This document shows, piece by piece, positions 44,199-45,898 of a stretch of DNA of 64,000 nucleotides. Position 1 is the stretch's first letter, and each line of letters begins with the position of its first letter. The translations under genes were made by a program, and so were the position numbers. The notes beneath the pieces were generated by a model that was given only the letters and a program-made list of their open reading frames with translations, did no database searches and was not told the DNA's origin. Location of the stretch: the sequence record SRR22947727_2435; one strand, given 5' to 3'.

Positions 44199-45142
44199 GT
44201 CGCTCCCCTGAGACTGTCGTCGCTGGTGGAGCTGTCTGCTGGAAAATCGTGGACGGCGAGGTGCGGATACTCCTGGTGCACCGGACCCAGCACAAAGATG
44301 TCTCGCTGCCCAAAGGAAAAGTTGATCCGGGAGAGACAGTCCCAGAGACCGCACAACGCGAAATCCTCGAGGAGACCGGACTCCACATCACCCTCGGTGC
44401 ATACCTCGGGCGAGTCGACTACCTGCTCCCCAGCAAGAAACCCAAAGAGGTTCACTACTGGGCAGCCGAGGTGGACCCTGGCGAGGCGGAGCGAGCCCCG
44501 TTTGAATCCAACGACGAGATTTATGCGCTCGAGTGGGTCTCTCTGAAAAAAGCTCCCAAAAGACTCACCTATGAACACGATGCTGACATCGTCGAGAACT
44601 TCCAGTCACTTTTCGACAGCGGTCGAGCACGGACCTTCCCCCTCATCTTGTTGCGTCACGCAAAAGCAATGCCTGCCGAAAACTGGGATGGCCCCGATCA
44701 CACCAGACCACTTCTCCACAAGGGACTCACCCAAGCGAAGAACGTCGCTGGTGGCGTGATGGCCTTTGCGCCAGAGCTTGTGGTCTCGAGTCCGGCAGCA
44801 CGCTGTCAGGCAACCATCCAGCCTTTACTGGAGCGAGCAGAACTTCGAGTCAAATCCTCCAAGAGCATTAGTCAGGATGCCTATGAGTCCAGCGGAAAGA
44901 AAGCTTTCGCCGCTGTGGAGAAAAGGGTCACTGGACGCATGGCCACCGTCCTCTGCTCTCATGGCCCCGTTCTACCCCAACTTGTCATGGCCGCAGCCGA
45001 GATTGGCCACGGAGGGTCGAGTAAAGCTCTGCAGAAGGCAGCGAGCTTATCCGTGGGGAGCTTCAGTGTCATTCACTTCTCGAAAGACACAAAAAGCCCG
45101 CACATTGTGGCCGTGGAGACCCACGAGCCACCTATCAGCTAA
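44195..45142 (+). CDS. mutT1: NUDIX hydrolase fused to histidine-phosphatase domain (MutT1-like)
   Basis: [10 protein letters not shown]...[11 protein letters not shown]udix box, then LLRHAKA and CSHG motifs. Confidence 0.88.
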
Positions 45143-45145
45143 AGA

Positions 45146-45223
45146 GCCGGACCGCAGAACGCCTCTCGGCGCGAGGCCGCTCGAAGCGGCTAGTGATGGA
45201 GCCCGGGGTTACTGCGGTCCGGC
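45146..45223 (-). ncRNA. Candidate structured small RNA (~80 nt), family not recognised
   Basis: 12-bp perfect terminal stem, two internal hairpins (UUCGA and GAGA loops), TACACT -10 box 6 nt before the first stem base, UCUUU tail. Confidence 0.65.
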
Positions 45224-45265
45224 ACCCTCAGTGTATCGAGCGTGTCCCTGGAACACCCGAGTCCT

Positions 45266-45898
45266 CTAGGTGAGGGTGCCTTTCCTGGCGCGAGAGGCAC
45301 ACCCTTCAAGCTCCTGGGCAATAACGCTCCAGGTCAAAGAGCGTGAGGTCAGATAGGAGGCCTCCCGGTCATCGGCAAGGGCTAGGGAGATAGCGCCGGC
45401 GGAGACTGCGGTGGCAACTGCAGCGGACCGCTCCAGTGCGTGAGCAATGTCGCCATCAAAAGCGCCCAAAAGAATGTCGTCGAGAACGCCAGAAAAGTCC
45501 TCTGCGCTCAGTGGATCAGGTGCTCCCGCCACAACAGCGTCAATGGTGGGGAGATCATCGACACCTCGTTGAAACAGTTGCGCGGTGTCCTGAGGGTTGT
45601 GATGCGCCACTGCTCGCACCAGATACAAACGCCACAGCGCTCCCGGAAGGCTGAGCGGATGAGCCTTCGACCACAGTTCTGCCAACGTGTCGAGTCCGTG
45701 CTCGTCAGCGAAGCGGACTAAGGCCTCTCGAACCCGCGCGTCGTCGCTGGATTGGCCTCGTGACAAAAGCGCCGTTGCCGTGGCATGGGCAATCGCGGAG
45801 ACATCGGCCGGGTCCATCACCAGTTCTGCAGGATCTGTGATGGCAGCTTCCATGCGACTAGTGCTCATGCGCACTGGTTTGGAGTAGTCACCGCTCAT
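45266..45898 (-). CDS. Conserved actinobacterial hypothetical protein (all-alpha; similar proteins recalled as mislabelled 'RNA polymerase subunit beta')
   Basis: 210 aa with AHATATALL, DEHGLDTLAELWS and SLPGALWRLY blocks; no RpoB motifs. Confidence 0.8.
   Translation of the reverse strand: MSGDYSKPVRMSTSRMEAAITDPAELVMDPADVSAIAHATATALLSRGQSSDDARVREALVRFADEHGLDTLAELWSKAHPLSLPGALWRLYLVRAVAHHNPQDTAQLFQRGVDDLPTIDAVVAGAPDPLSAEDFSGVLDDILLGAFDGDIAHALERSAAVATAVSAGAISLALADDREASYLTSRSLTWSVIAQELEGCASRARKGTLT

Follow-up and report, generated by a model that had tools for sequence, protein, structure and literature searches.

A 123-nucleotide (nt) spacer between two convergent genes in a 64,000-nt stretch of DNA (sequence record SRR22947727_2435; the whole stretch is hereafter the window) raises the question of whether it holds a genuine small RNA gene and, if so, whether that RNA is new and whether it operates together with the adjacent gene for a 210-amino-acid (aa) protein, as a preliminary description made from the sequence alone had proposed. 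The element in question, 45143–45223 on the minus strand, is best explained as a stand-alone gene for a conserved, structured small non-coding RNA that probably acts in trans and that is known, among the genomes searched, from one bacterial class only, a reading to which we assign a probability of roughly 75%. Together with its TACACT −10 box the RNA occupies the entire spacer, its 3′ tail abutting the stop codon of a MutT1-like gene, and the 210-aa open reading frame (ORF) ends 42 nt upstream of it, with the spacing and shared orientation that had been noted at the outset.

Structure, covariation and strand of the element

The RNA of about 81 nt combines a perfect 12-bp closing stem (P1) and two further pairs with a C-rich single strand (CCCCGGGCUCC) and two hairpins (P2 and P3; Table 1). 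The sequence reads as first described, both in the perfect stem at its ends closing two hairpins and in the TACACT box ahead of that stem on the minus strand. Separated by 54 nt, the P1 arms form the sole inverted repeat of at least 11 nt within 200 nt in the region 44000–47000; across the whole window there are 18 repeats of at least 12 nt, perfect in two cases only, one of which is the element, and the element itself is single-copy within the window. Compared with 200 shuffles, its folding energy gave z scores of −4.06 (minus strand) and −4.21 (plus strand), with no shuffle equalling either strand; both strands therefore fold better than shuffled sequence, and energy leaves the strand unchosen.

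Table 1. Coordinates of the small RNA, its parts and the neighbouring genes in the window
Feature	Position	Strand	Evidence
ppk	42003–44198	+	
MutT1-like NUDIX/histidine-phosphatase gene, convergent to the RNA	44195–45142	+	Pfam NUDIX 5.5e-21, His_Phos_1 2e-08
Small RNA, three-way junction closed by terminal stem	45143–45223	−	Covariance model R1, covariation, RNA-run contigs
P1 3′ arm (CUGCGGUCCGGC)	45146–45157	−	Inverted repeat, covariation; G-U wobbles readable only on the minus strand
P1 extension, 3′ side (UU)	45158–45159	−	Covariation shared with 45209–45210
P3 hairpin CGCC-GAGA-GGCG, GNRA-type loop	45160–45171	−	Three of four pairs invariant
P2 hairpin GCCGC-UUCGA-GCGGC	45176–45190	−	Second pair covaries; loop YNNGA
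Near-invariant unpaired C-rich strand CCCCGGGCUCC, junction P1/P2	45198–45208	−	Conservation
P1 extension, 5′ side (AA), partner UU 45158–45159	45209–45210	−	Covariation
P1 5′ arm (GCCGGACCGCAG)	45212–45223	−	Perfect inverted repeat; pairs covary without breaks
TACACT −10 box, 6 nt before first P1 base 45223	45230–45235	−	TANNNT in loci of the genus
Gene for 210-aa all-helical protein, co-oriented, upstream of the RNA	45266–45898	−	Conserved family
DUF2834 gene, divergent from the 210-aa gene	45964–46305	+	Pfam 1.7e-18
DUF3048 gene	46302–47399	−	

We assessed conservation with a blastn query of 45100–45300 against 41 relatives, in which a 78-nt core, and little else of the query, matched at 78%–93% identity in all 17 sampled families of the order. 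A MAFFT alignment of 30 copies (A1), the basis of the covariance model R1, contains a 23-pair structure (P1 12, extension 2, P2 5, P3 4) in which 98.5% of cells are paired, against 34%–45% in a control with the partners slid; 11 of the 23 pairs show changes on both sides, and RNAalifold independently recovered P1, P2 and P3. The pattern strengthened in 96 named sequences confirmed by R1 among the matches listed (see below), where 17 of 23 pairs covary, 98.9% of cells pair (28%–41% when slid) and the observed covariation score was reached by none of 500 shuffles. Compensatory change, which the preliminary description had put forward as a check, is thus present in the helices of both sets.

The variation is unevenly spread over the structure. 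All nine pairs of the lower P1 stem changed on both sides in the named set, and the AA/UU of the P1 extension is elsewhere AG/CU, GA/UC, GG/CC, GU/AC or UG/CA, giving six combinations in total. P2 and P3 are invariant within the order, and in distant lineages the GCCGC/GCGGC of P2 becomes GUCGC/GCGAC or GUGGC/GCCAC; among 87 distinct named sequences its second pair is CG in 61, UA in 25 and GC in one. The P2 loop always conforms to YNNGA. As UUCGA it resembles the T-loop of transfer RNA (tRNA), yet many sequences begin this loop with C. Of the four P3 pairs, only the outer one varies in the same 87 sequences (CG in 68, UG in 18 and UA in one), and the P3 loop reads GAGA, GUGA, GCGA or GACA, with GACU in two sequences. 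Save for rare single changes, CCCCGGGCUCC is invariant in all 30 order-level sequences, and its CCGG is kept across the class. Three features are therefore near-fixed: this junction strand, the GA that ends the P2 loop, and the three inner pairs of P3. A mutual information scan revealed neither a pseudoknot nor a pairing partner for the C-rich strand, the top-scoring pairs being helix pairs; one pair outside the helices (junction column 23 with the second loop base) was discarded because it is not complementary and looks phylogenetic.

Sequence drift also settles the strand in favour of the minus orientation originally proposed. In the 96 named sequences, 128 G-U cells on the minus strand would be A-C mismatches on the plus strand, the R1 score of the window element is 106.7 bits in the minus and 27.6 bits in the plus orientation, and the P3 loop is of GNRA type on the minus strand only. 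Taken together, these comparisons indicate that the element is a structured RNA encoded on the minus strand. They leave very little room for a DNA-level element (a protein-binding palindrome, a repeat or a mobile-element remnant) or a chance hairpin: such an origin would fit a perfect 12-bp inverted repeat whose two strands fold equally well, but it fits neither the strand-specific wobbles, the covarying helices and the one-sided GNRA-type loop nor an element that is single-copy in the window and retained in more than half of the class genomes searched, and we regard it as barely credible.

Distribution across the class

The class concerned is the one holding Streptomyces, Nocardia, Arthrobacter and Microbacterium, of which 151 genomes were sampled. 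R1 matched 86 of them, genomes of 8–9 Mb included and mostly with one copy each (80 of 145 without six genomes flagged unpublished: G046, G063, G069, G071, G075 and G082); the genome nearest to the window, G001, likewise has one copy. No match was found in 140 genomes from other classes of the phylum, and all eight R1 matches in a phylum-wide sample fell among 11 genomes of the same class. Named loci were collected with a degenerate core pattern run over named genomes, which returned at least 120 stretches; the first 100 were tested with R1, which confirmed 96. Among the matches listed, the hosts are Streptomyces, Kitasatospora, Nocardia, Gordonia, Pseudonocardia, Kribbella, Nocardioides, Cellulomonas, Arthrobacter, Rothia, Brevibacterium, Microbacterium and Leifsonia. 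Named Mycobacterium, Corynebacterium and Bifidobacterium are not among these matches, which passed a strict pattern and Infernal filters, so that absence from those genera is not implied. Pattern matches in Variovorax and in an Inquilinaceae metagenome-assembled genome failed R1 and were set aside as chance.

Some genomes carry two or three copies of the RNA (G150, G058, G127, G074 and G111). Locus L085 has two tandem copies 1.1 kb apart (3001–3114 and 4175–4295, minus strand) in which P2 is replaced by a hairpin of about 40 nt, and L092 has a similar longer hairpin in place of P2. Variants with a long P2 may escape R1 in other lineages.

Promoter motifs and independent transcription

We examined the sequence upstream of the RNA for signs that it is transcribed on its own, as its −10 box had suggested in the preliminary description. 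Within the window's genus, each of the 12 loci has TANNNT 6–7 nt ahead of P1. Across the class a different motif recurs: GGAA[TC]-N16-18-GTT stands ahead of 21 of 92 loci, against 10 of 12,283 control windows from the same loci, and with a spacer of N16-19 it stands ahead of 41 of the 96 named loci among the matches listed (Streptomyces 17/22, Microbacterium 5/6, Nocardia 3/4, Kribbella 2/2, and loci of Gordonia, Georgenia, Pseudonocardia, Janibacter and others). The SigH consensus of mycobacteria and corynebacteria is much like that of SigR. By its match to the published SigR consensus, given as GGAAT-N18-19-GTT (PMC9205884), the RNA in many lineages appears to have a SigR/SigH-type promoter. 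Arthrobacter loci have TTGACA upstream in place of the GGAAT motif. In Microbacterium the −10 position reads GTTACACT, behind GGGAAT-N17, and in the window the −10 region reads GATACACT; promoter type seems to have changed in the streamlined lineage to which the window belongs.

The orientation of the gene is also independent of its surroundings. Three Kitasatospora loci (L135, L150 and L184) and Streptomyces L118 have it turned round between an unchanged pair of neighbours, with a further inversion in Streptomyces L138, where the upstream neighbour only could be called, and it is inverted relative to the 210-aa gene in six loci (L018, L024, L037, L124, L143 and L172). A gene that turns around between unchanged neighbours would be its own transcription unit. 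Flanking genes were called crudely under a GC3 filter against spurious high-GC ORFs; of the 165 loci where a gene was called, 49 have a convergent gene as their nearest downstream neighbour within 150 nt, and 46 have a co-oriented one within that distance. Own promoter motifs, flipped orientation and convergent neighbours together argue for an independent small gene, unlike a leader or a 3′ untranslated region (UTR), and the proposal of independent transcription is borne out to that extent by sequence comparison.

Several features of individual lineages accompany these loci. The flip in Kitasatospora and Streptomyces, judged against the remaining Streptomyces loci examined, lies between malic-enzyme and HelD-like genes and is a small inversion carrying the RNA gene and its promoter. 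In one family with 6-Mb genomes, the gene immediately upstream of the RNA, in the same orientation, is WhiB-like (L069:3122–3490, minus, and L077 and L082); there the RNA is closest to Nocardia sequences and the promoter reads GGAAT-N17-GGTT/CGTT. Streptomyces-type and several Mycobacteriales-type loci (L084:2952–2990, minus, and L083, L093, L094 and others) have a strong GC hairpin and a U-run after the RNA core, and some lineages have an extra 5′ hairpin with a GNRA-like loop ahead of it. Where such extra hairpins are present, the mature RNA is probably 120–150 nt long, compared with about 80 nt in the window.

A role in cis was considered in two forms, a leader or riboswitch-like aptamer for the gene downstream, and a 3′-UTR stabiliser or terminator of the 210-aa gene. 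The three-way junction with its invariant junction residues and covarying P1 has an aptamer-like look, about 20 loci have a co-oriented DUF47-PHO4 operon starting closely downstream, 20 Streptomyces-type loci have a malic enzyme gene after the RNA, and metatranscriptome contigs bridge the RNA and the upstream 210-aa gene. However, in the window as in the other loci with a convergent gene next to the RNA there is nothing to control in cis, the RNA flips between fixed neighbours while carrying its own promoter motifs, and the conservation of its core is well above what a terminator needs. The resemblance to a bidirectional terminator, a GC-rich stem between convergent genes at whose foot RNA-run coverage stops, does not extend to the 54 nt of conserved interior, the promoter, or conservation across the class irrespective of neighbours; no T-run occurs on either strand of the element (the tail is UCUUU) and a terminator scan was empty. 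The RNA is therefore more than a terminator, as had been maintained from the start, and a role in cis appears improbable.

Contigs from four metatranscriptome runs (X1, X4, X7 and X13, labelled salt marsh, aquatic, freshwater and seawater) bear on the same point. In all four, both the RNA and the 210-aa gene are covered by contigs, and 44900–45115 by none; this zero cover is no evidence that mutT1 is silent. A 79-nt contig of X13 covers 45143–45218 with no differences and is nearly the RNA alone; X7 has an exact copy of 45144–45226 in unlike flanks, and hence one that derives from a relative. The contigs give a weak hint of transcription, of an end near 45143–45152 and of some read-through from the upstream gene.

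A number of these observations weigh against a stand-alone, trans-acting RNA. In X4 a 266-nt contig, and in X1 several contigs, run from the RNA into the 3′ end of the 210-aa gene, so that here the 210-aa messenger RNA (mRNA) may carry the RNA as a 3′ extension, in addition to or instead of a separate transcript; contigs from RNA runs may, moreover, hold DNA, and they show neither ends, strand nor level. Scans for a consensus sigma-70 promoter and for terminators call nothing at the element. The window's own upstream region has neither GGAAT nor GTT, and the link to a stress sigma factor is thus drawn from other lineages. The alignments derived from cmsearch, that of the 96 named sequences included, are fitted to the model and biased to its structure, while P3 and the C-rich strand never vary, so covariation cannot test their pairing state. 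Finally, the roughly 20 close, co-oriented DUF47-PHO4 pairs, among the 46 loci with a co-oriented downstream gene, would allow for a leader role in some lineages.

Comparison with known RNAs

The element had been described as lacking the known SRP, tmRNA, RNase P, 6C and riboswitch signatures, and searches agreed. A scan of 44000–47000 against Rfam 15 at E ≤ 10 gave six chance-level rows, none on the element; seven homologous loci gave no match at the gathering score, three Streptomyces loci gave sub-threshold rows only at E ≤ 5, and ARAGORN called no tRNA or transfer-messenger RNA gene in 44800–45600. The best of these Streptomyces rows, for Thr_leader, scored 29.5 bits against a cut-off of 55 and rests on the downstream terminator hairpin. 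Within the junction strand, CCGGGCUCCAU (45197–45207, minus) is presumably also found within CR-I/P4, a universally conserved region of RNase P RNA in bacteria, a match that may be chance in GC-rich sequence.

Whether the RNA is undescribed is a separate matter, because its neighbours in Streptomyces are a malic-enzyme gene on one side and a UvrD/HelD-like helicase gene on the other. We take SCO2951 to be the malic enzyme, and a Streptomyces coelicolor small RNA (sRNA) reportedly due to Vockenhuber et al. in 2011 is named scr2952, a name by which it should adjoin SCO2952. SCO2952 is a HelD gene (PMC8655204), and scr2952 is reported as an S. coelicolor sRNA that was detected by deep sequencing and verified on northern blots, with conservation in over half of the Streptomyces tested (PMC8388888). 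Position beside the HelD-like gene fits scr2952, which is probably, if putatively, our RNA. The likeness lies in the neighbourhood of the HelD gene, and the difference in that no structure, class-wide conservation or function is attached to the name in the texts searched. Rfam RF02825–RF02835 hold no Scr2952: they comprise LPR17, Scr6925, Scr6106, Scr4115, Scr1601, Scr2736, Scr5676, Scr3202, VqmR and Bcj11, with Scr3920 as RF02828, and the Scr families span RF02826–RF02833. The literature searched named scr2952 in one paper only and yielded no SigR/SigH-dependent conserved sRNA of such a shape, and no class-wide spread or function, although supplementary sRNA and SigR regulon tables may hold one. 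The label of an undescribed RNA thus stands in so far as no Rfam family covers it and is weakened by a Streptomyces copy that sits where scr2952 would lie; the RNA represents a new family of conserved actinobacterial sRNAs that no curated model covers, and its transcript has probably been glimpsed once already, in Streptomyces.

Likenesses in architecture are similarly partial. As in bacterial Y RNA and YrlA, to which the element had been compared, the two ends of the molecule pair in a long stem that closes a multi-branch module, whereas the element has no Rfam match and no tRNA-like call by ARAGORN; no Ro/Rsr gene was among the clustered neighbours, with no search aimed at Ro/Rsr. 6S RNA and Ms1 are abundant RNAs of 180–300 nt that bind RNA polymerase and mimic open promoter DNA. 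The element shares with them the character of a stand-alone regulatory RNA, and a link to transcription is hinted at only by the HelD neighbour in Streptomyces and an unsupported polymerase-beta label (see below), but the RNA of the window is a compact junction of 80 nt without an Rfam match.

The neighbouring 210-aa protein

The most specific proposal of the preliminary description was that the RNA and the 210-aa protein form a ribonucleoprotein (RNP) or a dedicated regulatory pair. The protein had been called all-alpha and of unknown function, which agrees with the evidence. Its family is real (421 database matches, with the motif GLDTLAELW...SLPGALWRLYLLR; homologue names place the window near Pontimonas, Microbacteriaceae) and matches no Pfam or NCBIfam family, and a sequence search of the PDB returned a single row at E = 0.83. 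Its AlphaFold2 model is all-helical with a mean confidence score (pLDDT) of 79. Foldseek gave the model no match at E ≤ 0.001, and the best VIA-align hit (Z = 8.7, a mitofusin helical bundle) falls within the background for helical models. The predicted fold therefore looks like a generic helical bundle, with no RNA-binding relative found, and structure prediction lends the pairing nothing specific. Some homologues are labelled "DNA-directed RNA polymerase subunit beta" (in some UniRef clusters) or "Histone acetyltransferase", labels that no model supports; source records call the protein hypothetical.

Co-occurrence was assessed with a homologue threshold of E ≤ 1e-5 in the class genomes. The family is present in 37 of 151 (34 of 145 without the unpublished genomes), and 35 of these 37 also carry the RNA; a homologue flanks 42 of 92 loci, in 38 of them upstream on the same strand, adjacency persists in the six loci where the RNA is locally inverted relative to the gene, and RNA-run contigs lie on both. 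On the other side, 51 of the 86 RNA-bearing genomes have no homologue, Streptomyces among them. Where both are present, they are adjacent in 23 genomes, 2.2 kb apart in two, and on other contigs or far apart in 10 (22, two and eight of 32 without the unpublished genomes); in the family f35 they are unlinked in all five genomes. An RNA with so much wider a distribution, a linkage broken in 10 of 35 genomes and a fold that is uninformative do not bear out the proposed pairing, which we consider unlikely. The adjacency looks like old synteny, kept in part of the range of the RNA, and on this genomic distribution the RNA cannot generally work through a dedicated RNP with the 210-aa protein. The protein is, in its own right, a separate and still unexplained conserved family.

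Possible modes of action

How, then, might a stand-alone RNA of this kind act? It folds as a three-way junction, with a closing stem of 12–14 bp, a 5-bp YNNGA hairpin, an invariant CGCC-GNRA-GGCG hairpin and the near-invariant free strand CCCCGGGCUCC, and its transcription would end at or just past the closing stem, which in the window may also shield the ends of two convergent units. The RNA would act in trans as a stress-responsive riboregulator; its functional surface would consist of two invariant parts, the junction strand and the P3 hairpin, through which it may bind a conserved cellular protein or complex, not necessarily the 210-aa protein. We favour such recognition over seed pairing because P1 and P2 drift with compensation while next to no change is seen in P3, in the loop residues or in the junction strand. 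As a statement of mechanism, a trans-acting, stress-responsive riboregulator recognised by a conserved protein or complex is nevertheless put forward tentatively.

The main alternative, possible if doubtful, is a base-pairing sRNA in the manner of 6C RNA, in which the C-rich CCCCGGGCUCC would pair with G-rich or Shine-Dalgarno-like sites in mRNAs and the helices would serve as scaffold and terminator. 6C RNA (RF01066) has two hairpins with C-rich loops. In the element the C-rich strand is the best-conserved single-stranded part and contains CUCC, complementary to GGAG. One abstract describes 6C as an sRNA conserved across Actinobacteria and driven by SigA/SigB in C. glutamicum (PMC5014011), so that both are small actinobacterial RNAs with an own promoter and a conserved unpaired C-rich motif. 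However, the RNA of the window is a three-way junction with its C-rich run in the junction strand instead of in hairpin loops, its family often has a SigR/SigH-type promoter, and the Rfam 6C model gave no row at E ≤ 10 on 44000–47000. Moreover, the scaffold helices of seed-pairing sRNAs usually drift, whereas here the class as a whole keeps the three inner P3 pairs, the GNRA-type loop and the GA in the P2 loop, which points to recognition of shape and sequence.

Extending recognition by a conserved protein or complex to the class as a whole, the RNA could be a compact three-way-junction RNA that is turned on in many lineages by SigR/SigH, the sigma factor of thiol-oxidative and heat stress, and that binds and modulates a conserved protein machine by means other than simple antisense pairing, a speculative proposal. 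From the recurrent neighbours described below, candidate machines would be transcription recycling (HelD) or phosphate and polyphosphate handling (ppk, mutT1, DUF47-Pit, pst). Conservation throughout a bacterial class is rare among non-coding RNAs, and if a class-wide riboregulator is the true reading, its reach would be comparable to that of 6C or 6S/Ms1. Its hosts include antibiotic producers (Streptomyces), commensals and opportunists (Rothia, Nocardia, Gordonia) and streamlined marine Microbacteriaceae. R1 now allows the RNA to be annotated, and since genetic model organisms exist among its hosts, it would be a practicable starting point for studying how RNA contributes to regulation in the SigR/SigH stress response.

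Genomic neighbourhoods

Clustering of flanking genes showed a few recurrent neighbours. The 210-aa gene is upstream on the same strand in 39 loci and a HelD-like (UvrD/HelD) helicase gene is upstream in 24 Streptomyces-type loci; in the 20 Streptomyces-type loci with a malic enzyme gene after the RNA, that gene stands behind a strong terminator hairpin. In the approximately 20 loci with the DUF47-PHO4 operon (Arthrobacter, Rothia, Janibacter, Brevibacterium, Isoptericola and Cellulomonas), a DUF47/PhoU-like gene and a PHO4 phosphate transporter gene are directly downstream of the RNA, with pst-like ABC genes beyond. Considered with the ppk-mutT1 pair of the window, gene content places the RNA in what is apparently a conserved phosphate-metabolism district across families. 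The order 210-aa gene, RNA, DUF47/PhoU-like gene, PHO4 is seen in L026, L105, L136, L141, L146–L148, L151, L159, L175, L178, L200 and others.

In the window itself, the MutT1-like protein reaches 176 bits with the equivalog model for MutT1 in NCBIfam (cut-off 475) and is therefore a relative whose orthology is unconfirmed. The 4-nt overlap between ppk and the MutT1-like gene (44195–44198) suggests that the two form an operon. On the other side of the RNA, a 58-aa ORF at 45895–46071 (minus strand) that seemingly overlaps the start of the 210-aa gene is spurious, an antisense artefact of the DUF2834 gene; its apparent conservation in tblastn arises because the opposite-strand gene is conserved. 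The 210-aa gene thus begins its own unit, divergent from DUF2834. The other perfect inverted repeat of at least 12 nt in the window lies far from these genes, at 3753–3787, with 16-nt arms (CTGTGGGGCCCTAGAC and GTCTAGGGCCCCACAG) around a 3-nt loop, and is possibly a terminator.

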